From a virus (lineage: Duplodnaviria > Caudoviricetes), in the IMG/VR virus record IMGVR_UViG_3300032030_000005, positions 96,001 through 160,000 of that record: a stretch of DNA of 64,000 nt; one strand, given 5' to 3'. A model generated the notes under the pieces. That model had not been told where the DNA came from. It ran no database searches and was given only the letters and a program-made list of their open reading frames with translations. Below, one piece after another: positions 14,174 to 48,471 of this stretch. The position numbers and the translations under genes are program-made. Numbering within the stretch: the first letter of the stretch is position 1; the number at the start of each line of letters is the position of its first letter.

Positions 14174-14785
14174 GTGATTTTAATGCGTTTTTATAACGAA
14201 GGTAACAAATGTAATTGTGGCAAGAGATCTTGTCCTGAATGCAATCCAAAGATTAGCAAGATTAGTAAGCCAGATGCAAATGGTTTAGTTAATAAGAAAA
14301 CAATTGGTAATCATTATATGAAGTTTGATGAAGCATTTATGCAGGGTTATTATGATGCTTTAAATGAAATGGAAGAATATGATGAATATGAGGAAGAAGA
14401 TGCTTATGAATCTTACAATGAAGAAGATTTAGAAAATGCATATCTTGAAGGTTATTATGCTGCTTTAAATGAAACATCAGCAGCTACTAAAGCTAAACAA
14501 AGATCACTTGGTATGAAAGGCGTTAAAGGTGGAACACATACTCATAATAATGACGATTTTTGGCCTTTATGTAATTCTGGAGCTTTTAAAAAAGATGAAG
14601 CTGTTAGAGATTATAGAAATAAACACAGGTCTGACTATTTAACAGTTAAAAGACAGAGAATGCTTGGTGGTAAGACTGTGGAAATTGCAGATGCTCCAAA
14701 TGGTAAAAGATATAGTATTTGGACTAAAGGACATCAGTATCCAACTTCAGAAAGAATTATTCCTAATAGGAAGCCTAATAAGTGA
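14174..14785 (+). CDS. EGYYDALNE-tagged basic protein (putative internal head protein) with an N-terminal Cys cluster
   Basis: CNCGKRSCPEC, then EAFMQGYYDALNE...AYLEGYYAALNE, then a K/R-rich tail. Probable start ATG at 14183. Confidence 0.65.
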   Translation: MILMRFYNEGNKCNCGKRSCPECNPKISKISKPDANGLVNKKTIGNHYMKFDEAFMQGYYDALNEMEEYDEYEEEDAYESYNEEDLENAYLEGYYAALNETSAATKAKQRSLGMKGVKGGTHTHNNDDFWPLCNSGAFKKDEAVRDYRNKHRSDYLTVKRQRMLGGKTVEIADAPNGKRYSIWTKGHQYPTSERIIPNRKPNK

Positions 14786-14786
14786 T

Positions 14787-14828
14787 AAAATATTCCCTTA
14801 AGACTAATAAGTCTTAAGGGAATATTTT
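14787..14828. terminator. Bidirectional terminator/palindrome, CCCTTAAGAC family
   Basis: AAAATATTCCCTTAAGACT-AATA-AGTCTTAAGGGAATATTTT between convergent genes. Confidence 0.8.
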
Positions 14829-15364
14829 TAATAAAGTTCTGCTAATGCATCATAATATCCTTCTAAAAATGCTTCAGTAAGATAATCTTCTTTAAATCCT
14901 TTAGTATATTTAACAGCTGCGTCATATGTGTTTTTATCCATTTCAGAATAATCACAAGTTTTATGTTTAAAACCTTTTCTGATAATTTCATGATTTTTTA
15001 TTTTTTTACTACCTTTAATAGCACCAACAGTTCCAACAGTAGCAAACATACCACTAGCAACAAGAACTCTTCTTAATCTTTTCATAGTTTGAATATCTTC
15101 TGGTGTTTTATTTTTTTTCGCTTTTAACGCTTTATATTTCTTTAATGCTGCTGCACCATTAGCAACATTTCCTATAGCCATAGCACCATGGATAGCTGTA
15201 TTAGCAATTTCTTTATTTCTATGTTTCTTTGCAACATCAGATAAATATTTATTTTGTACATAATGTGCATCTATTTTTCCATTACTGTCTATATGTTTTA
15301 CAGCTGCAGGATGATTAGTTCCTTTAGTTGACTTGCTATCAACTCTAACCCATTCTTCTGTCAT
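14828..15364 (-). CDS. Basic protein with a C-terminal EAFLEGYYDALAE tag and two hydrophobic Gly/Ala helices
   Basis: Ends in EDYLTEAFLEGYYDALAELY; hydrophobic segments AIHGAMAIGNVANGAAAL and VLVASGMFATVGTVGAI. Confidence 0.65.
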   Translation of the reverse strand: MTEEWVRVDSKSTKGTNHPAAVKHIDSNGKIDAHYVQNKYLSDVAKKHRNKEIANTAIHGAMAIGNVANGAAALKKYKALKAKKNKTPEDIQTMKRLRRVLVASGMFATVGTVGAIKGSKKIKNHEIIRKGFKHKTCDYSEMDKNTYDAAVKYTKGFKEDYLTEAFLEGYYDALAELY

Positions 15365-15389
15365 AATAATAGCCTTCTTTCTAATAATA

Positions 15390-15587
15390 TTATTTATTCA
15401 ATTTTTTAAGAGCTTCTAATGTAGAATCTGGAATAGCCAAGTCTGATTCAATACCTGCACCAAGTAATAATGTATATACAGTATTTAATGATTGTTTCTT
15501 AGAAATATCATTTGGAAGATCTTTTAGATATACATATCCTTGTTTAGAGATCTCTTTATACATAGCAGCCTTAGAATCCATACTATC
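15390..15587 (-). CDS. Exon 2 of the virion RNAP beta-like C-terminal subunit
   Basis: In-frame join ...KEFLGPRA|DSMDSKAAMYKEISKQG... after the terminal G of the intron at 15588. Confidence 0.8.
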   Translation of the reverse strand, partial: DSMDSKAAMYKEISKQGYVYLKDLPNDISKKQSLNTVYTLLLGAGIESDLAIPDSTLEALKKLNK

Positions 15588-16970
15588 CAATAATCTTCAC
15601 ATAGAATCGCTAATTCTATGCAGTTCTCTTATGAACTTCTTCATATTTCTATGAATGTTGAGACTATATCTTCATTTTTATATAAAAATAAAAATGCTTT
15701 TTGTTTCCATTTAAGGGATTTTCACCCACCGCTTGGCCGTACTCTACTTAAATATATAAATTTTCATAATCTCCTTTTTTAATAATAATTTTTCCATTTT
15801 TGATATAAAGGATATTATCAAAATCATTTATTTTTTCGATAGTCGTTGAACTATTTATAAAAAATTCAGCTAAAATTTTATCTAAAATTTTTCTATTTTT
15901 ATAGCTAATTCTAATTAATGAATATTTATTATTATTTATAAAAAAATCAAATTTCTCTTTATCCCTTGCAAGTTGTTCATTAAAGGTTTGTGGAGTATTA
16001 CTAAAAGATAATTCAAAATGTTGTTTTCCATCAAATTCTAGAAATATATTTGATTGTATAACAAAATCAAAAGATTTTGATGTTGAAAATTCATTACAAT
16101 GTTCTTCATCTTCAAAAGAAATATTATTTTTTATTAAAAACTTTTCTATTTCTTTACAATATATTGAATTTTTTATTTTTCTTCCACAATAAGGACATCT
16201 TGCTTTATTACATAAAAATTCTTTTGGAGCTACTTTATATATTTTATTACATTTATTATGTTTAATTTTAAGTGGTTTATCTGTATTTATATATTCTTCT
16301 AAAAAAGTATATTCATCTCCAACGTGATCTTTTACTTCTTTTAAAAATTCATCGTTTGTCCTTTTTGTATTTCTTTTACAGCAAAAAGGACATCTTCTTT
16401 TTGCTCTTACAAAATTATTAGGTGTTACAAAATACACATTACCACACAAATTATGTTTTACTTTTAATTTAGTTTTATCATTTATATATTCTTCTAAAAA
16501 AGTATATTCATCTCCAACTTGATTTTTTATTTCTTTTAAAAATTCATCATTAGATTTTCTTCTATTTTTAGCATTAAATTCCGTGATACATTTCCTACAT
16601 CTACATTTTTTATTTAAAAATGTGTTAGGAGTTACATTATAAATATTACCACACAAATTATGTTTTACTTTTAAAGGTGTATTAGTATTTATATATTCTT
16701 CTAAAAAAGTATATTCATCTCCAACTTGATTTTTTACTTCTTTTAAAAATTCATCGTTAGATTTTTTAATATTTTTTGGCATAACAAATTCTCCTTTTTA
16801 TTAATAAAAAATTTGTTTTGCAATTCACGGAATCTTTTATTTATAAATAGCTGCTGATTGTCCAATCCTTTTGATTTTCAAACATTCACGCTTAGAATTA
16901 CTTCTTACGTTGTAGTTCAAAAGGCTCTAAGGAGTTTCCAGCAATTAAAAAAGTTAAGAACCAATATTTT
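15588..16970 (-). mobile_element. Group I intron (IA-like) in the RNAP beta-like gene, carrying a homing endonuclease
   Basis: P1 AAGAGCU/GGUUCUU with a U.G pair at the 5' splice site. P AAUUGCUGGAA, Q AAUCAGCAG (~16851-16859), R GUUCAACGACUA (15840-15851), S AAGAUAUAGUCU (15661-15672), P9 hairpins and a terminal G. Confidence 0.9.
15748..16782 (-). CDS. Intron-encoded homing endonuclease (3 zinc-ribbon repeats plus Vsr/DUF559-like nuclease)
   Basis: Three NDEFLKE.K..VGDEYTFLEEYIN...KHN.C...C..C repeats; C-terminal FDF...LEFDGKQH. Confidence 0.85.
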   Translation of the reverse strand: MPKNIKKSNDEFLKEVKNQVGDEYTFLEEYINTNTPLKVKHNLCGNIYNVTPNTFLNKKCRCRKCITEFNAKNRRKSNDEFLKEIKNQVGDEYTFLEEYINDKTKLKVKHNLCGNVYFVTPNNFVRAKRRCPFCCKRNTKRTNDEFLKEVKDHVGDEYTFLEEYINTDKPLKIKHNKCNKIYKVAPKEFLCNKARCPYCGRKIKNSIYCKEIEKFLIKNNISFEDEEHCNEFSTSKSFDFVIQSNIFLEFDGKQHFELSFSNTPQTFNEQLARDKEKFDFFINNNKYSLIRISYKNRKILDKILAEFFINSSTTIEKINDFDNILYIKNGKIIIKKGDYENLYI

Positions 16971-19262
16971 AGCTCTTGGACCTAAGAATTCCTTTAATGC
17001 CACATTATCATCTTTATATGTTAATAATGAGAACGTTTCCATATCTGAAATTCTAGCGATTTTATCATCTGCGGTAACTTGACCTGTTTTCATATTACGT
17101 TTACTTATATCAAGTGAATATGTATTCTTTTTACTAAGCATCTGTTGTAATCTTCGGATATCTACATAGAGAACTGGAACTTTATATCTAGTTCTAATAG
17201 GATCATCTTTATGACCATCTTGCTTATAATATACATACTCTTCCGTAGGAACTTTTAAGAAGTCTAACGCATCTTTACAATCTTTAATTCTAGGGCAATT
17301 CTTATTAGGAAGTATTTCTAAATAGAAGTTCTTCTTATCATCTTTTAAGAATTCTTTCATATATTTATCGAATTTGTCATCATTCATAGAACTAAAAAGC
17401 TTCTTATATTTCTGAGTGTTTGCTCCTGTTTTATCAAGTAAGCTTAATGTTTTATAAATCTTTTCTTCAATTTGTTTTCTTTTAGCTGAATTAATAGACT
17501 CATTTAAAATTATATTAGAACTTTCATTAATAGTTTCAAATAATGTAAAAGAAGGATTTGCAATTATCTTAAAGTTATTTAATGCTTTAAGTTGATCTGT
17601 TAATTCAAAGTTTCTACTTTCAATTCTATAATCCTTTAAATCGAACTTCTTTACATAATAATCTAACATTTCTTTCATTAAATTATCAGCTTTGTATTCA
17701 GATGAAGCTTCTATAGCTATAAATGTAGGAATTGTTCTCTTATTAGAATCATCATCCATATTATATATCTTATCTTTGACTATTACATAACCAGCAACAT
17801 TATTATTCTTATCTATAAATAATAAACCATGTTCATCTCCGGCTAATTTCTGATAATTTCTTAATCGATAATGTGTTTTACCATATTTAAATAAATTCTG
17901 TGGAGTCATTTCTAATATAGTAAACTGAGCTAATACACTATTCTTAAAGTCTTCTTCATCTTGTACTGTATTAGTATAACGATAACCATTATCTTTATTA
18001 GTATTTAAATTAATAAGACTTGTTAAGAAATCTTTATTAGTCTTTGAATTATTTAAGATAAATGTTAATACATCTGAAGTTAATCCTTCTACTGTATAGA
18101 ATAAATTATCTTCATTGTATTCATTATAAACTTCATTTAAGATATCTCTCATATCATCAATAGATTCAAATTCATTTATACCCATCATAATATTATTATT
18201 ACATTCTAAGTAATAAGTCTTATTATCTTTTTCAAATGTAGGACATAATGAAGTTTTCTCTCCTAATGAATAGACTTGCATCTTAGGATTATAACCTAAA
18301 TCATAAAGTTTATTAAATACTGCAGAAGATCTTTGAGCTGCAGAACTTAAACCTACTGCATTAGGAGCTACTGCACCTTCTAAGCAAGTACTAAAATAAT
18401 CAAAGATATCTTCATAATTAGTAAGTTCTACACTTTCCATTAAAGGCTTATTATTATTTACATACTTCTCTAAAAATTCTTTAGGAGTCATTCTATTATT
18501 AGCTGATTCTACTGGATTAATAAAGTTCATATCAGTAGCTATCATATTAAATGATAATAATCTAGTCTCATAATCATATACATCTATATTAGGAACTTTT
18601 ATCAATTCAAACAGATGTAATAAATAGTTTACTGAAGCATATTCATAATATGTCTTCTGTTCATTTTGATCATCTAATAAATCCCAATTAATAGTATGAT
18701 ATAATGTAAATAAATCTGAAATATTAAATAATGAATTTATTTCTTCAAAATCTCTTAAGAATTTTTCATAACATTCATCCGGTACTAATTTGTTATAAAT
18801 ATGAATATATTTATTTTCTGATTCATATAACATATTATCAAATGATGCAATATCTATTTTATAATTAGTTATATCTGTAACATCCTGATAAATACCATAT
18901 GCTTTATTCTTAAAATTATTATCCCAAACAATGCATAATTTAATAAGTGTATTTTTATTATTAAAAAATTTAAAGATAGGTACTACACTTAATATATGAT
19001 ATTTCTTAGTTAAATCTCTTGTAAGATAATTTTCTGTATTATTTTTAAGAAATCTAACTGAATTAAACCAACTAGAAGATGGTCTTGTAAAATCTTTAGG
19101 GTCGTTTAATTTAGGAAGACCACTATTAAAATAATTACTAACATTAGCTATTTCTTTATGGCTTAATGTATCTCCACAAAATGGACAAGGCGTTTCTAAC
19201 AATGCTTGTTCAAATACAGAGTTACATGTATTACATTTACAATATGTATTATTTTCACTCAT
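16971..19262 (-). CDS. Exon 1 of the virion RNAP beta-like C-terminal subunit, with a ~590-aa N-terminal extension
   Basis: C-terminal RRLQQMLSKK...RNMKTGQVT.DDK.ARISDME...LKEFLGPRA matches the beta C-terminal region of split phage RNAPs. Spliced product is 829 aa. Late promoter motif upstream. Confidence 0.75.
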
Positions 19263-19288
19263 AGGATATTCACCTCTTTCTTAAAGTA

Positions 19289-19300
19289 TAACAAGATGTT
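19289..19300 (-). promoter_or_regulatory. Putative late promoter AACA-N6-TA
   Basis: Minus strand AACA TCTTGT TA upstream of the GAGGTGA SD of ORF 19262. Confidence 0.55.
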
Positions 19301-19330
19301 GGGATCATATAAAATATTTAAAATGTAAAA

Positions 19331-19358
19331 AAAAAATACTCCCGAAGGAGTATTTTTT
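19331..19358. terminator. Intrinsic terminator
   Basis: AATACTCC-CGAA-GGAGTATT flanked by A and T tracts. Confidence 0.75.
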
Positions 19359-19658
19359 TTAATAATCATATCCTTTTTTAAAATGGTAATCGGCTATCTG
19401 GTAATATAGCCGATATGTGGCTATTATATCTTCGATTGAACCACATCCAAATTCGCCGTCTCGGAGAACAGCTTTTATCAGTTCAATCGTTTTTTGGCAG
19501 ATCGTCCACTGCCAGCCATCATCGGCATCGAAGAGGGTTTGCATGGTGTCTCCATTTACATTACCTCCTTTTTGGGCGAAAGCCCATTCATTAAAACTTT
19601 TAATATTCCCACCTTCTAATTTAGTGAGAATTTCTTCATTAATAATAATTTCCGTCAT
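19359..19658 (-). CDS. Hypothetical early protein
   Basis: 99 aa, AAGGAGG SD, own TATATTAT promoter and terminator; visibly richer in GC than its neighbours. Confidence 0.7.
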   Translation of the reverse strand: MTEIIINEEILTKLEGGNIKSFNEWAFAQKGGNVNGDTMQTLFDADDGWQWTICQKTIELIKAVLRDGEFGCGSIEDIIATYRLYYQIADYHFKKGYDY

Positions 19659-19736
19659 ACTAATTCCTCCTTACATAGATAGTTTATTTATAAGACGTAT
19701 CTAGGTCTTGTTTAATATTTCATATTTTCCATAATT

Positions 19737-19744
19737 ATAATATA
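19737..19744 (-). promoter_or_regulatory. Putative early promoter TATATTAT
   Basis: Minus strand ATATATTATAATT upstream of ORF 19658; recurring intergenic motif. Confidence 0.6.
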
Positions 19745-19779
19745 TATTTGAGTGTATTTTTTATTACAGTTAATAAATA

Positions 19780-19809
19780 TCCCTTAAGACTAATTATAGT
19801 CTTAAGGGA
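19780..19809. terminator. CCCTTAAGAC-family hairpin terminator
   Basis: TCCCTTAAGACTA...TAGTCTTAAGGGA after ORF 24894(-). Confidence 0.75.
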
Positions 19810-19815
19810 AATAAA

Positions 19816-22800
19816 TTAAACAGTTTTATCTAATACTATATCAAGTTCCATAGCATTATTGTTTATAGTTGCTGGTGTATAGAATTTAAAATAACTATCT
19901 CTAAGATCCATTGATGATTGAATTATAAATAATTTATTTACACTAATATTATCAACTGGTTTTAAAGTCATTGTTATTGTACTAGAAGGATTATTTTTAT
20001 AATGGAATAAATAATCATTATTATTGTCTGTACCATCATATATAATAGATGAAAAATAATCTTTAAATGAACGACCATCAACAATATTAGTTTCAGATCT
20101 ATTATTTAAAATAGATCTATTTTCACTATCAATCACTGAACTGTCACTATATATAGGTTTATAAAGTATATCACAATTTTCAGTATCTCTATAATTACCA
20201 ATAACATCATATTTACTATTATTTTTAATATATTTATAAAATTTTTTATTTGTTAATGATACAAATATCATTTTATATTTATATATTTCATCTATTAAAT
20301 CTTCTAATGTTGTAAATGGATTTCCACTTGAATATCCTTTAGAACCACTAATTGGACAACCAACAGTTTCAAATAAATCAAAGACCATATTTAATAAAGC
20401 AGCTTCTGAATAGGTCTGACCATCTTGAGTTTCTCGTAATTCAAGATAGTAATTAGTTTTATTTGTATTATCACCAACTATTTTATAAGTAGTTCCTGTT
20501 GATGTAATATCTTCTGTTAAATTAATACAACTTTGAATTTGCTGTCTTTCATTATCTGTCATTTCATGACCTAAATTAACATACAATATTAATTCTTTAT
20601 TGACAATTCTATTTGCAGGATTTGCAATAGTATCTTTTTCAATATATTTAGCTACATTAAAGAAAGACTCATATGTATACTGAGCGTACATCGAATATGC
20701 TTCATTTAATTCTAATTCTATATTTTCAAGTGAATTACCTTCTAATATATACTTTAAATCATCTATATTATTAGTTGTTTTGTCATTAGTTAAAATATAA
20801 GTTTCTGTAATATCATCATATGTAGGAATATAATATTTATAAGAATTATCTTCATTTATTAAATAATAAATATATTCTTTATTTACTAAATTATTGTCAT
20901 TTAAATAAGTCATATAATCTTCAGAAACTAATGGTACAAGCATAGGATGAATTCGTTTATTATAAGGAATTCTATTGACAATTACACTATTATAACTTCT
21001 TGATGGTCTAATATAGAAGCCTGTAGTTCTTGAAGTATCTTTATTAATACGGTGAGTATTATTATAATACTTAACAAAGAAATCTTTATTTTTTGTCAAT
21101 ACATTAAAATTACCATAATCATATAAGTTATTATAATTTACATCGTATTTATTAAACGAACTTGGATAATTATCAAAAATATTATCTAATGGATCAACAA
21201 TGTAACCATTTACAACACTGCTATATCCACCAAATACATTTGGATCATAGTAAATTTTTACTTCTGTATCCGTTTCCTTATCCATATCATGTGTCATAAC
21301 ATATGGTCTAATATCTCCAATAAACTGATATATTGTTGGTATTGTAAAGACATCTTCAAATGTTCCTGCAGAATAATTATAAATATGTGAATGAGATATA
21401 CCAGTATCATCTACTGTCATATATCCAATATATCTATGTAATACACCTGATATAGTTTGATCATAGTCCTGAGATGTATAATCTAAATAATATAAACCAG
21501 TACGACTATCTCTAGTGTTTTCCCAATAATTTTTAAATTCATTATCATTATCTTTACAATATACTTTATGTAAAGTAGTGTCTATAAAATACATATTATT
21601 TTGGTTCAAATATTGTTTAAGTTTATAAATTTCTGGTTGTGTATCTGGATCTGGATCTGTTGTTAATGCTGTATAAATATCATCTTCTGTTGTTAAATAC
21701 TGTAAATGATAATAGACATCATCATTATCTATTGTTGATTTAAAATAGCAAAATGATAACATTTTAGAGTCTACTGTCTTAATACTTACTTTATCATTAT
21801 TATGATAGAAATCGTAAGACTCCTTAACATATTTAAACTTCTTTTGAGAAAGTCCTAATTTGCTTGGAATAGTTTGATTTTCATATATAGCATTAAACTG
21901 ATCTGGTGTTAAACTTGTAGTACCATAAGGAAGATTATCTTCTTTTTTAAATAACTTAAATTCTACATTACAATATTTTAAATATTTTTCATCCACACCC
22001 GGATCTAAAAAACCATCAACTTTATTGTATACTGATAAACTATAAGCTACATCTAAATCTGCATTTTCTTTTCTTATATCATCTTGGAAATCTATATATT
22101 CATTTTTAGTATGAAATTCTAGATTTTCTATTAATGTTGGATCATCATCAGGACCTATTTCAATTATATCATCAGGTTCTAACTCAGGTTTTCTTCCTGA
22201 TTTATCTCTATTATAACCATCGAATATTTTAATATAGTCATTTGTAGAATCATTAAATTCAATAATATTTTTAGCATATAAAGTATCTAATGTATAAGCT
22301 TTAAATACTTCAATTAATAATCTTGCATAATCTTTAATATCAGAGAATATTATATTGAATGTACTATTATAAACTATATTATCAGTACTATTAATATAAC
22401 TTTCAATAGAAGATGATAATTCTAATAATCTATTTTCTATTTCAGTTCTACGATCGTTATCATTATTAAATTCACCAAAACTTGTTACATATGTATATAA
22501 CTCTTCATCATTAGCAACTAAATATTCTTTAAAACTATCGAATCCTTTATAAGTCTCATAATTAAAATTAGATTTAAACTTATGATTCCATAATTCTCTA
22601 AGACTATTATAAATATCTCTATTAGTAGCTTCTTTGATAAATGTCTCTAATTGTAATCTTATACTTTCATTTTTAGTGTATATATCCATAAATTCAGATA
22701 TTGTAATATCTGACTTTTTATTTTCTATATCTGTTAAACCAGTAATAGACTGACTATCATTTAAATTCTTACTAAATATTTCTTTCTTTAAAGAAGCAAA

Positions 22801-24894: not shown

Positions 24895-24982
24895 CTCACT
24901 TTTATAATTTAAGTTATTGTTAAAATTAAAATTTTTCTTTTATTATATAGAAATTTTCAAATTTTATTTTTAATTTAAATTA

Positions 24983-37206: not shown

Positions 37207-37226
37207 TTGAAAGGAGATAATATAAT

Positions 37227-38147: not shown

Positions 38148-38149
38148 TA

Positions 38150-39868: not shown

Positions 39869-39892
39869 AATTTTAATTTTTAATTGAAAATA

Positions 39893-39900
39893 TATATTAT
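39893..39900 (+). promoter_or_regulatory. Putative early promoter TATATTAT
   Basis: TATATATTATA 33 bp upstream of the RNAP beta'-like gene. Confidence 0.65.
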
Positions 39901-39932
39901 ATACTTGCATAAAATATAAAGGAGGATAACTT

Positions 39933-41357
39933 ATGCACTTTAATATCTTAAACTTTGATACTATTTTTAATCCCGATTATGTAATTAGTTCTACTGATTA
40001 TATAACAAACATTGGAAAGACTAAAGAAGTCTTTAACGATGATGGATTATTCTCCGAACGAATATTCGGAGAAAATTCAGATGATACACCAATTGATAGA
40101 GTTGGTTGGATTGTATTTGAAAAATTTAAGATAATTAGTCCTCTATTTTATGAGAGAATGAAAAAGGTGTTCACTAACAAACGTTTAAATGCAATGTTAA
40201 CGTTTGAAATCAAAACAGACAAGAATGGTAATTTGATAAGTGATGAAGATTCTTTGTTTGTTAAACCAGACAAGAATGGTGAATATCCAGATACGTTTGA
40301 TCCTCAGAATATTGGACTTCCGGGATTCATTAAACATTTCGAAGAAATACTAGATCTCTATGGTAATAAAGATGTACCAGAGTATGCAGTAGTAAAAAAT
40401 GCTTATGATAATGGATTACTCTTTATTGACAAAATGCCGGTCATATCCTCTAAACTCAGACCGGGTAAAATTATTAAAGGCTCTAAAAATAAAAATAAGA
40501 ACAATCAGAGAGCCACAAAAACAATTGTAAAGTATGATGATATTAACGGTCATTATAACTTCATATTACAGTATAGTAATACAATAAAAGAATTATTAGA
40601 AATGCATTCATTTACATCTATAGATGATTTAAATGATCAGTTTGAAGAAGACAAATTAAATGCAAATGATACTGTATATGGAATTTATAAAATATTATAT
40701 TCTTTACAAGAAGAAGCATATCAAATTATAGTATATATTATCAACAACTTTTTAAAAGATAAAAAGGGTGTACTGAGAAAATTAATAGCTTCTACACGAG
40801 TAAACTATTCAGCCAGAAATGTATTAACTCCTAGACTTAAGGGTAAAATTGACGAAGTTGAATTACCTTATTTAACATTCTTAGAGTTATATAGATTTCC
40901 ATTAACAAATCTTATAGTAAAGGCTGAAGGTATAACATATAATGAAGCTGATGAATACATTCAGAATTGTAAAAGAAGATTTGACAATAAATTATTTAAA
41001 TATATGAGAGAACTTATTGTCAATAGCAAGAAAGTAGAAAATCCTATCTCAATACTTCTTAATCGAAACCCATCCATAGCTATTGGGTCTATTCTTGAAT
41101 TAGAAGTAGCGAGAGTTAAAGATAATTTCAATGACTTAACTATATCTGTAAGTAACAATATTCTTACTAACCTTAATGCCGATTATGACGGTGATGTATT
41201 GAATATATTCGCTCTTTTAACTAAGGAAGAGAAAGAATACTTCAAGAGACTTAAGCCTTCTAATCTTATTATAGATAAGAATAATGGAAAATTTGATAGA
41301 GGATTTAGTATAGGTCATGATGGTCGTATTGGACTTGAAATATTGACTAAGATTTAA
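39933..41357 (+). CDS. Phage RNAP beta'-like subunit, N-terminal/catalytic part (probably non-virion RNAP)
   Basis: GLFSERIFG, KKGVLR...RVNYSARNVL, LLNRNPS and the catalytic NADYDGD. The early promoter suggests the non-virion enzyme. Confidence 0.9.
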   Translation: MHFNILNFDTIFNPDYVISSTDYITNIGKTKEVFNDDGLFSERIFGENSDDTPIDRVGWIVFEKFKIISPLFYERMKKVFTNKRLNAMLTFEIKTDKNGNLISDEDSLFVKPDKNGEYPDTFDPQNIGLPGFIKHFEEILDLYGNKDVPEYAVVKNAYDNGLLFIDKMPVISSKLRPGKIIKGSKNKNKNNQRATKTIVKYDDINGHYNFILQYSNTIKELLEMHSFTSIDDLNDQFEEDKLNANDTVYGIYKILYSLQEEAYQIIVYIINNFLKDKKGVLRKLIASTRVNYSARNVLTPRLKGKIDEVELPYLTFLELYRFPLTNLIVKAEGITYNEADEYIQNCKRRFDNKLFKYMRELIVNSKKVENPISILLNRNPSIAIGSILELEVARVKDNFNDLTISVSNNILTNLNADYDGDVLNIFALLTKEEKEYFKRLKPSNLIIDKNNGKFDRGFSIGHDGRIGLEILTKI

Positions 41358-41363
41358 ATATAA

Positions 41364-41398
41364 TAAAGCTTAAAGACATTATAGTCTTTAAGCTTTAT
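41364..41398 (+). terminator. Hairpin terminator
   Basis: TAAAGCTTAAAGAC...GTCTTTAAGCTTTA plus T tract. Confidence 0.75.
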
Positions 41399-41427
41399 TT
41401 TTTAATTTTTATTCTAATATTTAATTA

Positions 41428-41435
41428 TATATTAT
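41428..41435 (+). promoter_or_regulatory. Putative early promoter TATATTAT
   Basis: Upstream of the 41506-44868 operon. Confidence 0.6.
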
Positions 41436-41505
41436 ATAAATGTGTATATAGAAATATATACTAAGATAAATAATAAAATTTAAAAATGAAAAGGAGTTGA
41501 ATTAA

Positions 41506-42144
41506 ATGCCACGAAGAAACAAAAGAAAGAAGTTGAAGCCCATAAATCTCAATAATATTCCTTTAAGAGAATTAAATAAGATTATTGATGATGATGTTGT
41601 TATTAAACGAGAAATCAGCAATATCAAATCTAATATTGAAAAGGAAAATGAGGAGATATACCAGCTTCGAAAGGAGAAGGTAACTGTTCTCGAAACTTTA
41701 GTTGATAAGATGTTATTGGATAAGGAAATGACTACCCTAATTAGTCAGTATATTGAATTATCAGATAATATTAGAACTAGAGAACTAAAGAACAGTAATC
41801 GTCGTGCTGATCTTAATTTCAAGAAAGAAAAGATTGGTTACGATGATGAAAAGGATGAAATTATTCATCCAGAGAAAAACTTTTTGACTGCTGATGACAG
41901 TTCAGAACATTACATAGGACTATACAATAAAATATGTCATAGTCCTGTAGCTAAATGTCTAAAGAAGAATGTATATCTTTCTGATTTAGATATTAGATGT
42001 AAGAAATGTCTGAAGCAGAGAAACCATCAGATGTGTAAACATCTGGCATTCTTAAAAGATGATGGTTTAATTTCAAATAGTCATTCATCTTATGAGAATG
42101 AAGAAGATTATGAAGAAAATGATGAAAATTACGAGGAGGACTAA
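41506..42144 (+). CDS. Hypothetical protein, coiled coil plus Cys/His cluster
   Basis: C-terminal C..K..YL...D...KKCL......CKH, possibly metal binding; AAGGAG SD. Confidence 0.65.
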   Translation: MPRRNKRKKLKPINLNNIPLRELNKIIDDDVVIKREISNIKSNIEKENEEIYQLRKEKVTVLETLVDKMLLDKEMTTLISQYIELSDNIRTRELKNSNRRADLNFKKEKIGYDDEKDEIIHPEKNFLTADDSSEHYIGLYNKICHSPVAKCLKKNVYLSDLDIRCKKCLKQRNHQMCKHLAFLKDDGLISNSHSSYENEEDYEENDENYEED

Positions 42145-42146
42145 GT

Positions 42147-42695
42147 ATGAAAAAGATTTTAGCCTTATGTGGAGCTACTTCTAGTGGAAAAACTTATATT
42201 AAGGATTTGCTCTGTAATCCAGATAAAGATATTAATTTTGTGTTTCATGCACCAATTCAGGTAACAACTAGACTTAAAAGAGCTAGTGAACCACTATCAA
42301 CATATAGATACGTAACTCAGGAAGAATATGATGAGTTTGAAAGAGATGGAATACTTACAGCTCAGACATATTTTAATGGAAATAGTTATGGTACATTGAT
42401 GTCGAATTTTATTGTGGGCAAAAATGCTTATAATATCATTTTATGCTCCGCAGAAGGGCTAAATAATCTTAAAAAAAGATTCAAGGATGATGTAACAGTT
42501 AGCATTGAAACAGCATTAGTCCTTAGTGACTTTAATGAAAAACTGATCAATGATCATAACAGAACAATGGAATTTGTAAAAGAAGAATTTATTGGATTAG
42601 CTCAGCAAGAATATGATTATTATATTAGGAATTATTCAGACAATAGAGCTACACTTAATAGTGTTCTTCACGATATTGATAAATGGTTTGCATAA
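42147..42695 (+). CDS. Guanylate kinase-like nucleotide kinase
   Basis: P-loop GATSSGKT; VTTRLKR..E...YRYV; FNGNSYGT. Confidence 0.8.
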   Translation: MKKILALCGATSSGKTYIKDLLCNPDKDINFVFHAPIQVTTRLKRASEPLSTYRYVTQEEYDEFERDGILTAQTYFNGNSYGTLMSNFIVGKNAYNIILCSAEGLNNLKKRFKDDVTVSIETALVLSDFNEKLINDHNRTMEFVKEEFIGLAQQEYDYYIRNYSDNRATLNSVLHDIDKWFA

Positions 42696-43285
42696 TGAAA
42701 GAGATATACATATTTTCAGATGGTGGAAGCTTTAACAATGGCTTTAAAGATCCAGATAAGCCAATGTACGGATCTTATGGTTCTATTATTGTTAAGGACA
42801 ATAAGATAGTATATCAGTTCTCAGACTGGTATGAGAATATCACTAATAATCAAGGGGAACTTTATGGATTTATTAAAGCTTATATAGAATTCTTAAAGCA
42901 CTATAAATCTAAAGAACCTTATAAGGTTATAGTAGTATCTGATTCTCAGTATTTAATAAATGGAGTTAATAAATATTTAGAGAATTGGAAAAAGAAAAAC
43001 TGGCATACAGCTTCAGGTGATGATGTTAAAAATTTAGAATTATGGAAAATCATCGATTTCTTAATAAATTTTGAACCAAACATCACTTTAGAATTTGTTT
43101 GGCAGAAAGGTCATAAGGGTAAAAAGGTGACCTTAGAAGAGAATCCATTAATATACTTCAATGAAGTATGTGATTCTTTAGCAACAGATCAAATCAATAA
43201 GGCTGTTAAAGAAGGAGAAAATTATATTCCTCCAGATGTATTTAAGAACCTTATTGATAATTTAATAAAAAAATTTAATCTTTAA
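42683..43285 (+). CDS. rnhA: Ribonuclease HI
   Basis: IFSDG, TNNQGEL, VSDSQY, VKNLELW, WQKGH, NEVCDSLA. Likely start ATG at 42695. Confidence 0.92.
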   Translation: MVCIMKEIYIFSDGGSFNNGFKDPDKPMYGSYGSIIVKDNKIVYQFSDWYENITNNQGELYGFIKAYIEFLKHYKSKEPYKVIVVSDSQYLINGVNKYLENWKKKNWHTASGDDVKNLELWKIIDFLINFEPNITLEFVWQKGHKGKKVTLEENPLIYFNEVCDSLATDQINKAVKEGENYIPPDVFKNLIDNLIKKFNL

Positions 43286-43301
43286 TAACGGGGGAAGAAA
43301 A

Positions 43302-44087
43302 ATGACAGAATTCATGAACTTCAAAAATCAGCCAATGGTAATTTACGGTCATATATATAATGACTGTACTGTAACAACAGTTGCAGATAAGTACATACAG
43401 ATTTTAGTTAATGATTTGAATGATAAGTTTATAGATGATAAGATCATCATAAACTCAACAAAGACATTTAACTTACCGATGACTGATTGTGGTCTTAATC
43501 CAGATGCTAAAATAACTATTTTAAATTATTTTAATTTCTGGATGCCATTAAAGGACTTTATGTCTATTAACTCAAAGAAAGAAGAAAAGAAAGCTGCTCC
43601 AAAGGATGATAAGGATAGCTTATTTAAGACAAAAATAATCGATAGCCATATACCGAATAATATTAAGGGAGAAATCCTTGGAGAACTTGAATCACCTATT
43701 ACAACAGGTAAGTTAAGTTTTAGTACTTCAATTGATTTAATTCTTGTAAGATTTGGTGATCCAGATCCGAAGGAAGTTAATATTGTTGGATTTGATAAGG
43801 AGAAAGAATTACTAATTTTCTCTGATAAGAATGAATTCAAGTATTATAGAGTTAGACTTGATGATTTCGTTACAGGAAAGTCAAAATTAACAGAAAAGAA
43901 AAAGGAAAATAAAGAAGAAACAAGAAAAACAACTCCAACATTAAAGCCTAAGAAGGCAACTGAAAAGAACGTTGTAAATGAGAAATTTAATGATGATGAC
44001 GTTCAGGAAAAGTTTGTCGACGAATTAGCCGACATGATAAAGGAAATATTTGGCGATAATAAAAATATCACTATTAGGAGAATATAA
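43302..44087 (+). CDS. Hypothetical protein
   Basis: 261-aa ORF within the operon. Confidence 0.65.
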   Translation: MTEFMNFKNQPMVIYGHIYNDCTVTTVADKYIQILVNDLNDKFIDDKIIINSTKTFNLPMTDCGLNPDAKITILNYFNFWMPLKDFMSINSKKEEKKAAPKDDKDSLFKTKIIDSHIPNNIKGEILGELESPITTGKLSFSTSIDLILVRFGDPDPKEVNIVGFDKEKELLIFSDKNEFKYYRVRLDDFVTGKSKLTEKKKENKEETRKTTPTLKPKKATEKNVVNEKFNDDDVQEKFVDELADMIKEIFGDNKNITIRRI

Positions 44088-44088
44088 T

Positions 44089-44358
44089 ATGGAATATGAT
44101 GCTTCATCATTTCATATTCCAGAGGAAATAAAGAAAATTTTATTCAAAGGTCAATTTAATATAATAGAAGACAAAAATGGCCTTATTAAATTGACTTTTA
44201 AAACAGACTTTGGATATGAAACTGCTCCAATGATAATGACAAAAACAAATCCCATAATTGAAGAGCTTAGAAACTGTTTAGAATTTAGTAAAGCTCTTGA
44301 AGAAAATAAGAAAATAACCGCTGAGTATGAAGATTTATCTTCTACTGAATGGAGGTAA
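44089..44358 (+). CDS. Hypothetical protein
   Basis: ORF track 44050-44358; the AGGAG SD before ATG 44089 favours that start. Confidence 0.6.
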   Translation: MEYDASSFHIPEEIKKILFKGQFNIIEDKNGLIKLTFKTDFGYETAPMIMTKTNPIIEELRNCLEFSKALEENKKITAEYEDLSSTEWR

Positions 44359-44364
44359 AATAAA

Positions 44365-44868
44365 ATGACTGAAGAATTCTTTAGAATTTCTACTTCAGTC
44401 ATACTTATAATAGTTGTGCTGGTCCTTCTGGCACAACTATTTTTTTCGTATAAGATTGCTAATTTTTTAGTATCTTTTATTGAAAAAGATGATAAAAGTA
44501 TGGCTGAATTAAATTATCAAAAAATTATTGATGATTTAGATAAAATTGTTACTAGAAAATGTTATACAGCTTACAGAAGAGTTTTACAACCATATGTTAG
44601 TAAAGCATTAAAGAATAAACCATTAATTAATGATAAAGTTGTAAATGATATAACGTTACAGATTACAACAGAAATATTAGAAGAAATGTCTGATGATTAT
44701 AAACAGAAATTACTATTAGTATATAAAGAAGATTTACTGGAAGATATTATTCTTGAAATGGTGTATAACACTGTAACTGAAATGTCTTTGACTATTAACA
44801 AAAATTCTATTAAATCAATGAACTTTGTTAAAACTATGAGGCATATGAATAATATAACAGAAGACTAA
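44365..44868 (+). CDS. Hypothetical membrane-anchored protein
   Basis: N-terminal transmembrane segment SVILIIVVLVLLAQLFF; GGAGGT SD. Confidence 0.7.
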   Translation: MTEEFFRISTSVILIIVVLVLLAQLFFSYKIANFLVSFIEKDDKSMAELNYQKIIDDLDKIVTRKCYTAYRRVLQPYVSKALKNKPLINDKVVNDITLQITTEILEEMSDDYKQKLLLVYKEDLLEDIILEMVYNTVTEMSLTINKNSIKSMNFVKTMRHMNNITED

Positions 44869-44871
44869 AAA

Positions 44872-44902
44872 TATCCCTAAAGGTTAATAACCTTTAGGGA
44901 TT
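44872..44902 (+). terminator. Hairpin terminator
   Basis: ATCCCTAAAGGTT...AACCTTTAGGGAT. Confidence 0.75.
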
Positions 44903-44934
44903 TTATTAAACGTATTGAATATATGTATTAAGTA

Positions 44935-45137
44935 TATATTATAATTATGGATTAAAGTATGCTATCCGGAGAATCAATGTAAATCTTTTCACCTCATCAT
45001 GCATTGATATAGATATTTTAATCTAAAAATCGAACAGAATAATAACCAAAAACACACTACTTTAAAAAGGAGATAATGGCTACGGACCATTCGAAAAAAT
45101 AATGTTTCTTCAAATAAGGCCATTATCTCTTTTTTTT
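44935..45137 (+). ncRNA. Candidate early small RNA (two long hairpins)
   Basis: TATATTAT at 44935-44942, no long ORF, hairpin at ~44949-45024 and a terminator hairpin at ~45064-45137. Confidence 0.5.
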
Positions 45138-45895
45138 TATGCTGCAGGAATATCTTCAGTATCTAATTTAACTTTCTCTAAGAAATCTACATCTCCCATA
45201 TCGAGATATACTTTCTTAATTCTAAGCTTATCTAAATCTAATTCAGTATCACCATCAAGAATTTCATTAGTCTTGTTATTAATTAAATTAAGCACTTCCT
45301 TATAATTACCATATTCTTTAGCATTATATTCATCTATAAAATCATGATAATTACCAAATACATATTTATTAGTTAATGGTATAAATAATTCACCAGCATG
45401 GTATAATTCATGAGGAGTTACTGATAAAGGAACTAAGCCAACTTTTCCTTCATAATGAAGTCTTAATACTTCCTTAGAAATAGAAAATGGATTTAAACAT
45501 CTATCAAACAGCTTTTGATTAGATGGATCTTCCATTTGATTCTTCATTCTATTTTGAATAACTATTGAAGTTATATCAAATATAGTAAAAGGATAATGAT
45601 GCATTTCAAATGAAATCTTACAATTATCAGATATGTCTATATTTTTAAAAAAAGCACATTTTGTTAAATCAAATTCAGTTTTTAAAATCTTTATATATTT
45701 TCTATATTCATAACTAGAACGAATCATCTTTACAATCTGTTTTGTATAATCCGAAAGAGATTTTTCATCTTCGAATATATCCATATATAATTCTCTAAAA
45801 TCTGTATAATTGTGAGCATCTACTGAAAGTACTATATGACCATCATCTTCTACTGTATTATTTTTTAAAGTTTCTGATAAATTTGGTACTAACAT
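45137..45895 (-). CDS. Hypothetical protein with an HNH-like His motif
   Basis: C.FF...EMHHYPF...LHY...GLVPLSVTPHELYH. Confidence 0.55.
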   Translation of the reverse strand: MLVPNLSETLKNNTVEDDGHIVLSVDAHNYTDFRELYMDIFEDEKSLSDYTKQIVKMIRSSYEYRKYIKILKTEFDLTKCAFFKNIDISDNCKISFEMHHYPFTIFDITSIVIQNRMKNQMEDPSNQKLFDRCLNPFSISKEVLRLHYEGKVGLVPLSVTPHELYHAGELFIPLTNKYVFGNYHDFIDEYNAKEYGNYKEVLNLINNKTNEILDGDTELDLDKLRIKKVYLDMGDVDFLEKVKLDTEDIPAA

Positions 45896-45984
45896 AGTAT
45901 CACCTTCTTAATAATTAATATAATGTAAAGTTTAAAAAACTAATTATTATATTTTTACACTATAATAGAAAGAAGGACATTGAT

Positions 45985-46452
45985 ATGAATTATGAAGAAT
46001 TATTTTTAGAAGGTTATTATGATGCTTTAAATGAAATAGAAGAAGATTCTTATGATGAATATGAAGCTTATAATGAAGAAGATTTAGAAGAAGCATATCT
46101 TGAAGGTTATTATGCAGCTTTAAATGAAGCTAATAAATACGAACAATATATGGGTATGACTAAAGGTCAAAAGCAACAAGCAAGATATGATAGAAATAGA
46201 GCTGAAGATACAACAAAATATATAACCTTAAAAAATGGAAAAAAAGGTGCTATTGGAAGGGCTTCAAACTTTATGTATCATAATATGAACGGTAGAAAAG
46301 TTGGTTCAGATTATGGTTCAAATTCATACACTGTAATGCAAAAAGGATTTAATAACGCACCTGAAAATAGAGAAAAGAATATAAGTTCAGTTTCTTCTAG
46401 AAATTTAAGAAGAGGTAGTGCATCTAATAGTTGGCATAATATTGATAAATAA
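45985..46452 (+). CDS. EGYYDALNE-leader protein with basic cargo A
   Basis: 46-aa acidic leader identical to that of ORF 47071(-), followed by an unrelated K/R/N-rich tail. Confidence 0.75.
   Translation: MNYEELFLEGYYDALNEIEEDSYDEYEAYNEEDLEEAYLEGYYAALNEANKYEQYMGMTKGQKQQARYDRNRAEDTTKYITLKNGKKGAIGRASNFMYHNMNGRKVGSDYGSNSYTVMQKGFNNAPENREKNISSVSSRNLRRGSASNSWHNIDK
45991..46128 (+). repeat. 138-bp perfect inverted repeat, left copy
   Basis: Identical to the reverse complement of 46919-47056 (checked base by base). Confidence 0.95.
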
Positions 46453-46502
46453 AAATATATCCCTTAAGACTAATTAGTCTTAAGGGATATATTTTTATTT
46501 AT
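46445..46502. terminator. Perfect 58-bp palindrome, bidirectional terminator (CCCTTAAGAC family)
   Basis: ATAAATAAAAATATATCCCTTAAGACTAA|TTAGTCTTAAGGGATATATTTTTATTTAT. Confidence 0.9.
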
Positions 46503-47071
46503 TAAAAATCTTTTTTCTTTAAACCATTTTTAGTTTGTACATATTTACCTTTATTGGTATAATATCTATGCTCAGTACCATCACTAGTGGTAAAAGTTGC
46601 TCTACTTGGCTGACCACCATAGTATTTAACTGATGAACCAAGCATATCATGCATTCCTGCAGAATTTGGATTAACTGATTTTCCATCTATTGTAGCACTA
46701 GTTATATATTTACCTTTAGTTGATGGATTTACACCTTTATTATGAATTAATCTTCCTTTAGTCAGTCCTCTATATGATTTACCTTTTTCTTTAGACATTT
46801 TTCCCGGATGCATAAGTGCTTCTATTTTTCTTCCTTCATGAACATTACCAGCTTTCATTTGTTTTCTCCATTCACGAGCTAAAACTTTATTATGTTCTTG
46901 TTTATTATACTGACTTGTTTCATTTAAAGCTGCATAATAACCTTCAAGATATGCTTCTTCTAAATCTTCTTCATTATAAGCTTCATATTCATCATAAGAA
47001 TCTTCTTCTATTTCATTTAAAGCATCATAATAACCTTCTAAAAATAATTCTTCATATGTCATTATAGACAC
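46502..47071 (-). CDS. EGYYDALNE-leader protein with basic cargo B
   Basis: Same 46-aa leader, different K/G-rich tail. Confidence 0.75.
   Translation of the reverse strand: MSIMTYEELFLEGYYDALNEIEEDSYDEYEAYNEEDLEEAYLEGYYAALNETSQYNKQEHNKVLAREWRKQMKAGNVHEGRKIEALMHPGKMSKEKGKSYRGLTKGRLIHNKGVNPSTKGKYITSATIDGKSVNPNSAGMHDMLGSSVKYYGGQPSRATFTTSDGTEHRYYTNKGKYVQTKNGLKKKDF
46919..47056 (-). repeat. 138-bp perfect inverted repeat, right copy
   Basis: Reverse complement of 45991-46128. Confidence 0.95.
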
Positions 47072-47133
47072 ATCCTTTCTTTAAATTAATAATTTATAGT
47101 TTTATAATTCGTATCAAAATAAAATTATATATA

Positions 47134-47141
47134 TATATTAT
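47134..47141 (+). promoter_or_regulatory. Putative early promoter TATATTAT
   Basis: Directly upstream of the small-ORF array. Confidence 0.6.
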
Positions 47142-47163
47142 AATTGTAGAAAGGAGGAATATT

Positions 47164-47277
47164 ATGATTAAAGATATTCTTAAGGTCTTGGTAAAGACCT
47201 ACTCAGTAGCGTTGGCTGTTACAGGTATAGCGCTTCTGATATTAAATGTCATATCCTCACAAAAAGAAAAAAACTAA
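47164..47277 (+). CDS. Small membrane peptide (37 aa)
   Basis: AAGGAGG SD; MIKDILKVLVKTYSVALAVTGIALLILNVISSQKEKN. Confidence 0.7.
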   Translation: MIKDILKVLVKTYSVALAVTGIALLILNVISSQKEKN

Positions 47278-47312
47278 TAATCTGTTAATCACATGAAAGG
47301 AGGTGATATAGT

Positions 47313-47441
47313 ATGACAGATATTATATTAAACTTTTTTAAAGGTTTACTCTACGCACATGAAGTAGGGTTAGCTATTAGTGTTGCCTGTCTTGCATTGA
47401 TAGTGGTTTGCTGTAGACAGAATAACAAAGAAGATAAATAA
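47313..47441 (+). CDS. Small membrane peptide (42 aa)
   Basis: AAGGAGGTGA SD; MTDIILNFFKGLLYAHEVGLAISVACLALIVVCCRQNNKEDK. Confidence 0.7.
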   Translation: MTDIILNFFKGLLYAHEVGLAISVACLALIVVCCRQNNKEDK

Positions 47442-47489
47442 AAAATGATCGCTGTGAAGCGATCATTGTAAGAAAGAAGGTGATTAAAA

Positions 47490-47555
47490 ATGATTAAAAC
47501 AATTATTTTAAGATTTATTTCTGAAATTATTTACAGGTGTAACAACTTTAGATAA
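47490..47555 (+). CDS. Small peptide (21 aa)
   Basis: GAAGGTGA SD; MIKTIILRFISEIIYRCNNFR. Confidence 0.45.
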   Translation: MIKTIILRFISEIIYRCNNFR

Positions 47556-47592
47556 TATAATTTCAGATAAGATTCAATAAGGAGGTGATAAA

Positions 47593-47682
47593 ATGTATGA
47601 GTACACAATTGTATTCTTAAAAGCAGTAACAACTGCGATTTATCTTATAGAGCTATTGGGGGTATGCTTTAAAGGTAAATAA
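47593..47682 (+). CDS. Small membrane peptide (29 aa)
   Basis: AAGGAGGTGA SD; MYEYTIVFLKAVTTAIYLIELLGVCFKGK. Confidence 0.65.
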   Translation: MYEYTIVFLKAVTTAIYLIELLGVCFKGK

Positions 47683-47718
47683 AAAAATAATGATTGCTGT
47701 GAAGCAAGCGTTATTTTT

Positions 47719-48471
47719 TTAGTTTACAACATCATAAAATACTTCAATGTAACTATTATTTAATTTTTTAATTTTAGTTAAATTAAGAATACCTATATCA
47801 CTTAATTTTTTAACATCACTTCCACCTATTAAAGAAGATGTATTTGTACCACCAACTAATATCGGACATATAACAATATTGACTTTGTCTATTAAATGGT
47901 TTCTTAAAAAGATATTATTTAAAGTTGAACCAGTTTGTATTGTAAGTTCTTTGCATCCATACTTATATAATTCTTCAAGCATATTTTTTGGATTAAATTT
48001 TCCATTATATTCTATAATAGTTAAATTATCTTCGTTAGATAAATATGCTGGATGATTTTTATTACTTGTTACTAAATAAAAATGATTGAATACACTACAT
48101 GTATAAGATACACCATGATCTGTTAAATGATTATTATCTATAATAACAAAATTAACTGGACATCTTTCTTTAGCAAATGGCTTTGAATTATAACCGACTT
48201 TTGCCATTACTCTACCACTATTTAAACTCCATAAATCCGTTTCTTGTTCTGCTTCATAGTATTGATGTAATCCTTGTGCTGGGTTACCTGATAATTTAGG
48301 AATATCTTTATCTACATCAAAATTATCAGTAGGACCTGTACTTATTTTTCCATCTAAGCTTTGTAAAAGAAATAATGTTGTAACAGGTCTATTTGACGGA
48401 TTCTGCTGTTCGTTTAATATTTCATACATATATGCATCGAAATAACCTTCTAAAAAAGCTTTATTTAACAT
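47719..48471 (-). CDS. RibD C-terminal/dihydrofolate reductase-family protein with an N-terminal FLEGYFDA tag
   Basis: RPVTTLFLLQSLDGKIS, LTIQTGSTLN.FL...LIDKV.IVICPILVGG; extra N-terminal MLNKAFLEGYFDAYMYEILNE. Confidence 0.85.
   Translation of the reverse strand: MLNKAFLEGYFDAYMYEILNEQQNPSNRPVTTLFLLQSLDGKISTGPTDNFDVDKDIPKLSGNPAQGLHQYYEAEQETDLWSLNSGRVMAKVGYNSKPFAKERCPVNFVIIDNNHLTDHGVSYTCSVFNHFYLVTSNKNHPAYLSNEDNLTIIEYNGKFNPKNMLEELYKYGCKELTIQTGSTLNNIFLRNHLIDKVNIVICPILVGGTNTSSLIGGSDVKKLSDIGILNLTKIKKLNNSYIEVFYDVVN

Follow-up and report, generated by a model that had tools for sequence, protein, structure and literature searches.

The internal proteins IPI-III and Alt of phage T4 carry a short leader, the capsid-targeting sequence (CTS), that is common to unrelated, mostly basic and fast-evolving cargos and is removed by the protease gp21. 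The T4 CTS reads MKTYQEFIAE (PMC8442874), with residues 4 and 7 (Y and F) serving in targeting and residues 8 and 10 (I and E) directing processing (PMC8442874, PMC9026906). Proteases of the gp21 family cut after the Glu of [LI]-x-E (PMC9026906, PMC5694885); Alt is cut at both termini (ITE-6 and LTE-619), and the same is expected of gp21 (PMC5694885, PMC9026906). T4 also offers a precedent for targeting foreign enzymes by means of the CTS. In the jumbo phages phiKZ, 201phi2-1 and SPN3US, a gp21-like protease (gp175 or gp245) cleaves numerous proteins of the head interior after Glu, N-termini are conserved among paralogues and the pro-peptides have been inferred to target the prohead (PMC5694885, PMC10052503). 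How jumbo phages choose the internal and ejection proteins of the head is a standing question; the pro-peptides known from phiKZ and SPN3US are all long and idiosyncratic, and no scaffold is known for these phages (PMC5694885). Descriptions of phiKZ, 201phi2-1 and SPN3US include no short portable consensus tag. Here, we describe such a candidate: a 15-residue acidic tag on otherwise unrelated proteins encoded in a window of 64,000 nucleotides (bases 96,001-160,000 of the 305,865-bp IMG/VR viral record IMGVR_UViG_3300032030_000005). An earlier note on this window had proposed that the tag routes interchangeable cargo into the phage head, is cleaved at LNE and that the cargo is ejected into the host. 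With modest confidence, we favour the reading that the tag is a clade-specific, elaborated counterpart of the T4 CTS, used for loading into the head and removed by the head protease.

The source genome has a GC content of ~25% and is rated complete by CheckV. The phage is uncultured and derives from the rumen; it is an AR9-like jumbo phage, distantly related to Bacillus phage AR9/PBS1 and to Staphylococcus jumbo phages. Like phiKZ, 201phi2-1 and SPN3US, it belongs to jumbo phages that are related through two multisubunit RNA polymerases. Its closer relatives form a small clade of rumen-type jumbo-phage contigs.

The tag has the form [ED][ED]-h-[FY]-[LM]-E-G-Y-Y-[DA]-A-[LI]-x-E, where h is hydrophobic. 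All eight copies listed in the earlier note were recovered, two each in open reading frames (ORFs) 14174, 45985 and 47071 and one each in the genes at 14828-15364(-) and 47719-48471(-) (Table 1); the tag region indeed ends in LNE in four of these five proteins, and the tag lies at the C-terminus of the fourth gene product and at the N-terminus of the fifth. At the DNA level, the back-translated core SAR-GGN-TAY-TWY-GMN-GCN matches the window eight times, against 0.00 times in 100 dinucleotide-preserving shuffles. Extending the search with a motif profile to the full genome and its relatives turned up more tagged ORFs: the six-frame translation of the 305,865-bp genome holds 14 strong copies distributed over 11 ORFs, one weak copy in ORF 196307 and nothing besides, so that at least 11 otherwise unrelated late proteins are tagged. 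ORF 236351 carries a copy that reads AYLEGYYYALE. Across the tag family set (59 non-redundant members with 96 tags), the sequence logo is [ED][ED]-[AIL]-[FY]-[LM]-E-G-Y-Y-[DA]-A-[LI]-x-E, and the G-Y-Y-x-A core is at least 90% conserved (43 copies).

The distribution of the tag is narrow. Whole-record counts of the core give 14 copies in a complete 265-kb relative and none in AR9, in Staphylococcus phage SA1 or in an AR9-type contig that is more distant; with the pattern reversed as a control, the count is 0. Scans of IMG/VR and metagenomes with the DNA pattern returned matches almost exclusively from the small rumen-type clade; hits in L009, L030, L032, L035, L041, L042, L059, L061 and L067 were judged to be chance matches in unrelated proteins and were excluded. 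The strict DNA pattern has no match in 596 Gb of prokaryote genomes, which rules out a common bacterial motif, and a protein profile built from 43 rows gave 29 significant matches among 1.84 billion protein representatives, all of them small multi-tagged phage proteins. A full-text search of 8.4 million papers for the motif gave no match. Chance or low complexity as its origin is ruled out by the shuffled expectation and the reversed-pattern control, and a DNA-level mobile element by the finding that every copy lies in one reading frame within an ORF and that synonymous variation is present.

One line of evidence for the portability of the tag is the enzyme at 47719-48471(-). The earlier note had described the tag as an N-terminal add-on to an ordinary RibD-family enzyme, and this description is borne out: residues 32-233 form a full-length domain (Pfam PF01872, 64.5 bits against a cut-off of 24.1), and each of its more than 1000 homologues (53-73% identity) begins with M-x-RP[IV]TTLFLL and lacks an extension. 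The extension is unique to the copy in this phage; it is preceded by a strong ribosome-binding site and contains no internal Met. Scans of the tagged proteins against Pfam and PHROG found no family other than RibD_C.

Table 1. Coordinates, in window numbering, of tagged genes, tag copies, tag-coding cassettes and late-type promoter motifs.
Feature	Position	Strand	Description
Tagged late gene (ORF 14174)	14174..14785	+	Cys-knuckle N-terminal module, two tags, acidic Tyr-rich linker, 103-aa basic tail
Tag copy	14324..14368	+	FDEAFMQGYYDALNE; in ORF 14174
Tag copy	14429..14473	+	LENAYLEGYYAALNE; in ORF 14174
178-aa basic protein, C-terminal tag	14828..15364	-	One Gly/Ala-rich hydrophobic segment, VLVASGMFATVGTVGAI; pI 9.6
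C-terminal tag copy	14837..14881	-	LTEAFLEGYYDALAE; followed by just LY and the stop codon
155-aa protein (ORF 45985)	45985..46452	+	48-aa double-tag acidic pro-region (net -18), then 107-aa basic cargo (net +12)
Tag-coding cassette, 138 nt	45991..46128	+	Codon 3 to the Glu codon of LNE; ORF 45985
Double-tagged protein (ORF 47071)	46502..47071	-	ATG at 47062; unrelated 138-aa basic cargo (net +18)
Second, identical tag cassette, 138 nt	46919..47056	-	ORF 47071
RibD_C / dihydrofolate-reductase-family enzyme	47719..48471	-	26-residue N-terminal tag-bearing extension; start MLNKAFLEGYFDAYMYEILNE
Degenerate tag copy	48424..48468	-	LNKAFLEGYFDAYMY; followed by EILNE; in RibD_C enzyme
Late-type promoter motif	12236..12248	+	Heads unit 12265-12891 / 12910-14130 / 14174-14785 (ORF 14174 third)
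Late-type promoter motif	19288..19300	-	AAC[AT]-N5-TTAT
Late-type promoter motif	45938..45950	+	AACTAATTATTAT; 35 nt upstream of ORF 45985
Late-type promoter motif	47089..47101	-	AACTATAAATTAT; 18 nt upstream of ORF 47071
One-off late-motif variant	49249..49261	-	AACGATTTATTAT; 32 nt upstream of Zn-finger endonuclease gene; putative promoter

The remaining carriers in the window join the tag to a variety of sequences. Translation of ORF 14174 most likely begins at the ATG at 14183, after a GAGGTG ribosome-binding site; its Cys-knuckle module, which is found again in other tagged proteins, therefore lies before the tags, a correction to the earlier note. The protein encoded at 14828-15364(-) ends in ...AFLEGYYDALAELY at the stop codon. 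Neither the double-tagged proteins of the window nor the RibD_C enzyme has a hydrophobic segment. When the tags were masked, 43 tagged proteins of the clade fell into 23 BLAST clusters. The cargos are thus unrelated at the BLAST level, as had been claimed. They are not wholly random, however: Gly/Ala-rich hydrophobic segments occur in many of them, and a small number of short modules recur. The elements that recur around the tags are a ~70-aa module that ORF 70229 likewise contains, the Cys-knuckle of ORF 14174, the Gly/Ala segments and the basic tails.

The tag region is also a boundary of charge. Pro-regions of 17-100 aa carry a net charge of -4 to -18, against +5 to +18 in the sequence that follows, in agreement with the basic cargos noted earlier, and the flip from acidic to basic takes place at the Glu of [LI]-x-E. 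In ORF 14174 the switch, from -12 in the pro-region to +13 in the remainder, falls between ALNE and TSAA; in ORFs 45985 and 47071 the double-tag pro-regions are 48-51 aa long with a net charge of -18. The same Glu marks a boundary in the DNA. The cassettes of ORFs 45985 and 47071 are identical at 138 of 138 bases and are flanked by sequence that is only 34-38% identical, and their 3' edge is the Glu codon of LNE, the putative cleavage codon. Across a distance of 32 kb, the second tags of these two ORFs are ~95% identical in DNA to that of ORF 14174, and the remaining copies differ synonymously. This combination of cassette identity and synonymous differences indicates that the motif is under selection at the protein level and that its coding cassette is also swapped as a unit; exchanged between genes in this way, the tag is portable. 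Two nuclease genes adjoin tagged genes: an HNH endonuclease (PHROG 559) at window 15748-16782(-), directly upstream of the C-terminally tagged gene, and a Zn-finger endonuclease (PHROG 15137) at 48471-49217(-), directly upstream of the tagged RibD-like gene, to which it is translationally coupled. Homing-type nucleases in such positions might promote cassette exchange.

The near balance of net charges (for example -18 against +12 or +18) would also be expected if the acidic tag and linker were mainly an intramolecular neutralizer or chaperone for toxic, strongly basic nucleic-acid-binding domains, which gene conversion had spread through a rapidly evolving family of paralogues and which had no role in targeting. 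The homogenization of tag DNA among paralogues fits this explanation, as does the pattern among the orthologues of ORF 45985, in which the two tags are invariant and the linker varies in length through insertions and deletions. However, the RibD_C enzyme and several carriers with Gly/Ala-zipper segments are not strongly basic or are tagged at the C-terminus, and a neutralizer would need neither the invariant G-Y-Y-x-A core nor the clustering of tagged genes around the head protease described below. We regard a purely neutralizing role as rather improbable.

The resemblance to T4 lies in the architecture of the tag, which can be parsed as [Y-E-E-L-F-L-E]-G-[Y-Y-D-A-L-N-E], two tandem heptads that each follow the pattern aromatic-x-acidic-h-h-x-Glu. 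Both halves share the spacing Y-x-[ED]-h-h-x-E with YQEFIAE of T4, a match at the level of pattern, as 7-10 residues are too short to show homology. The T4 leader and the tag thus have in common the arrangement Y-x-E-h-h-x-E with a closing hydrophobic-x-Glu, and the phages have in common a protease of the same Pfam family (S77). [LI]-x-E closes 76% of the N-terminal and internal tags, and 76 of 80 tags have L or I at P3. Starts resembling the T4 CTS are found at nine of 268 gene N-termini, compared with seven of 1686 internal Met residues. The tag module is probably helical; in predicted structures of a Gly/Ala-zipper protein tagged at both ends (alignment A1, mean pLDDT 47) and of ORF 45985 (A2, mean pLDDT 44) the tags are helical, in models that are too poor to use. 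For residues 1-62 of ORF 45985 modelled together with the L070 protease, which is unsplit and comes from a close relative (40-row alignment), the complex score was 0.00, a value that speaks neither for nor against an interaction.

A prohead protease of the gp21 family is encoded at genome positions 235,025-236,225. The segment L012:7025-7543 scores 37.4 bits on Pfam Peptidase_S77 (PF03420), above the cut-off of 27, and PHROG 207, head maturation protease, is a second match. His79, Ser138 and Asp165 are invariant among 40 homologues. The ORF is broken after ...ICYDWV and resumes ~390 nt further on (L012:7540-7930, genome ~235,540-235,930); in the L070 orthologue, which is 87% identical, the protease is unsplit and continuous through ...AYDWVTIPSHDK.... 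The three genes immediately 3' of the protease start MNYRDLILE, MTYNEYLNE and MNYEELFLEGYYDALEE, and the next, diverging gene starts MNNIDILLE, so that CTS-like starts are present in four genes adjoining the protease, two of which have the full tag. Upstream of the protease, an 899-aa Metallophos polyprotein starts MDYIDFFNE. In relatives with proteases that are 82-87% identical, three tagged genes likewise adjoin the protease, in a changed order and orientation. Elsewhere, the gene directly ahead of the tagged ORF 70229 is homologous to AR9 g112, an annotated virion protein.

The major capsid protein (MCP) is encoded at genome 289,966-291,765 (L078:966-2765(-)). A neighbouring gene starts MYDFYNEDYLLEGS, has Gly/Ala segments and matches PHROG 172, head scaffolding protein. 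The MCP pro-region contains a conserved [IL]-x-E followed by S in four phages, and in this phage (residues ~53-67), in AR9 and in SA1 it reads Y-x3-L-x-E-G-[FL]-[DE]-x-x-E, which recalls the first half of the tag, Y-x3-h-x-E-G-[FY]. One explanation of this likeness would be that the tag hands late proteins over to a chaperonin or other folding helper instead of the head. The N-terminus of T4 gp23 directs proteins to GroEL, and T4 pro-peptides have been credited with chaperonin recruitment in addition to core targeting (PMC10052503). The resemblance is only partial, however, and is lost in the fourth MCP (TEDLD), where D replaces G, which makes it weak; small, probably disordered basic proteins would moreover be unlikely clients. 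We consider a chaperonin-directing role very improbable.

Two further proteins were observed near head genes. A hyper-acidic 347-aa protein (L012:17082-18125(+), genome 245,082-246,125) adjoins the head-tail joining gene, is kept in relatives and contains DDEGYYEEDYDEYEDYY and ...EAMLNESDD; its composition is tag-like, and it is a candidate scaffold or core protein. Two genes from the MCP, a 639-aa protein (L078:4303-6222(-), genome 293,303-295,222) has an HEVGH zincin motif and Gly/Ala-rich segments and occupies the place that in AR9 belongs to g118, an annotated zincin protease.

Promoter motifs place the tagged genes among the late genes. The consensus promoters of AR9 are AAATATATATTAT-N6-G (early) and AACA-N6-TA/G (late) (PMC5312081). 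The motif AAC[AT]-N5-TTAT, which was adopted after an initial guess at the late promoter (CTATAAATTATTA) failed to generalize, occurs 75 times in the genome, and for 42 of these copies a gene on the same strand begins 0-90 nt further downstream, compared with ~3 expected; it is the counterpart of the AR9 late promoter. It stands ahead of the protease, of virion genes and of tagged genes, with other tagged genes further downstream in late units. In addition, ~45 early-type promoters (ATATATATTAT-N5-TG) are near-identical to the AR9 early consensus (in the window at 19745(-), 44934(+) and 47133(+), for example). With units assigned by a simple upstream walk and timing inferred from these motifs, tags or CTS-like starts are present in none of the 132 early-unit genes, compared with 12 of 81 late-unit genes (Fisher p = 5e-6).

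Two other proteins of the window were noted. The 406-aa protein at 12910-14130(+), directly upstream of ORF 14174, has the CTS-like start MVYTTYLNEE and a weak PHROG match to crotonase / enoyl-CoA-hydratase-like proteins (E 1.5e-6). The last 170 residues of a 781-aa late protein at 16917-19262(-) match PHROGs labelled hydrolase and RNA polymerase beta subunit.

The head-loading proposal of the earlier note is partly supported, by circumstantial evidence. The gp21-family protease, the synteny of tagged genes with it and with the MCP and virion genes, the late units, the CTS pattern, the coincidence of the charge and cassette boundaries at LNE and the graft onto the RibD enzyme all argue for it. 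Several observations weigh against it, above all in its simplest form of a leader cut at LNE. The tag is not strictly N-terminal as in T4: 16 of the 96 tags are C-terminal, with 1-6 residues after them, many others are internal, and in the wider set tags frequently join modules whose order is highly variable. A cut at a C-terminal [LI]-x-E would take off merely those 1-6 residues, and the terminal Glu is conserved in 81% of C-terminal tags compared with 76% of N-terminal and internal tags; being equally kept where cleavage would achieve so little, this Glu belongs to the binding motif, whatever its other roles. The first heptad has F or Y at P3, unlike the canonical L or I, and [LI]-x-E is not depleted within 46 basic cargo segments (38 observed, 34 expected). 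AR9 and SA1 carry homologous proteases and have no tag, which shows that the tag is not needed by this protease family. The RibD-like unit has no exact late motif, just a one-off variant. Finally, tblastn searches of 50,697 phage records with ORF 45985, with the cargo domains of ORFs 196307 and 238422 and with module X gave no match, and no cargo was matched in a cultured phage for which a virion proteome is available.

A further point against the simple leader, that most cargos of the clade have Gly/Ala-zipper hydrophobic segments (one or two in most members), also provides the starting point for a different explanation. The tag could be a helix for association that brings together, at the cell membrane, a set of late Gly/Ala-zipper proteins anchored there and some soluble clients; these could form a prohead-nucleating platform or a lysis or exclusion complex, no packaging would be involved and cutting would not be required. 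Proteins with a tag at each terminus are common, which would place both tags on the same side of a two-helix hairpin, and C-terminal tags make poor sense as cleavage sites. In T4, the inner membrane is where proheads nucleate, and their release follows proteolysis (PMC5694885, PMC9026906). Association at the membrane would, however, leave the charge switch and cassette boundary at the L-x-E Glu unexplained, together with the T4 CTS resemblance of the N-terminal starts, and it does not suit the double-tagged proteins of the window or the RibD_C enzyme, which lack a hydrophobic segment. Fusions found in other phages also suggest the prohead core as the site of the Gly-zipper segments: homologues of the S77 protease (P0234, P0235 and P0241) continue at the C-terminus into such a segment (Pfam PF13488 / PF13441) and a helical tail. 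On balance, we judge a membrane-association helix to be unlikely.

Returning to an elaborated T4 CTS, we infer that the tagged proteins dock, are cleaved, reside in the virion and are ejected. Late in infection, the tag would dock its carrier onto the assembling prohead core, and the gp21-family serine protease would process the carrier after the hydrophobic-x-Glu that closes each heptad. In the small basic proteins, processing would strip a strongly acidic pro-region that neutralizes the basic cargo during assembly; in multi-module proteins, the tags would be the junctions at which the chain is cut into pieces. The cargos (small basic proteins, putatively membrane-active Gly/Ala-zipper proteins and at least one enzyme) would remain in the head and would probably be delivered with the DNA; the tag-coding DNA itself is swapped between genes as a cassette.

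Such a system would share with the T4 internal proteins a diverse and mostly basic set of cargos and the confinement of tags to late units, and would differ from the T4 CTS in several respects. The unit is duplicated, with two heptads and a Gly joint, and has an invariant G-Y-Y-x-A core that is absent from T4; it often occurs twice per protein with an acidic Tyr-rich linker in between; it is found at N-terminal, internal and C-terminal positions and at module junctions; and many of its cargos have Gly/Ala-zipper segments. Compared with phiKZ and SPN3US, the differences concern the cleavage site and the pro-region: the motif there is [S/A/G]-x-E (PMC10052503), as opposed to L or I at P3 here, and the pro-peptides are mostly 111-254 residues long and N-terminal only, as opposed to pro-regions of 17-100 aa here. 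Encapsulin cargo-loading peptides provide a parallel in that a short N- or C-terminal peptide loads diverse enzymes into an HK97-fold shell; they are unrelated in sequence, are uncleaved and need neither protease nor scaffold.

A bolder version of head loading, which we put forward tentatively and consider doubtful as a whole, is that the tag works as a 'pack and cut' module that does not depend on position and is exchanged as a cassette. Whatever protein acquired it, at one of its ends or between two modules, would be pulled into the prohead core and cut back by the head protease. The hosts of the clade are taken to be Gram-positive gut bacteria in this version. Were the tag to act in this manner on any protein, the clade could re-equip its capsid with new injectable cargo through short-homology recombination at the tag DNA, and the cargo would include DNA-binding proteins, membrane-channel formers and metabolic enzymes such as the DHFR-family reductase. 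It would amount to a natural programmable protein-delivery system, with rules (a tandem heptad, an invariant GYYxA core and use at both ends) that exceed those of the T4 CTS.

A compact consensus tag that is present in ~14 copies per genome, is exchanged as a cassette and has been grafted onto an ordinary enzyme would open the question of how jumbo phages load their heads to direct testing. It would yield a ready list of the candidate injected proteome for an uncultured clade of rumen phages, and could serve, after the T4 CTS, as a second packaging handle for loading proteins into phage capsids.

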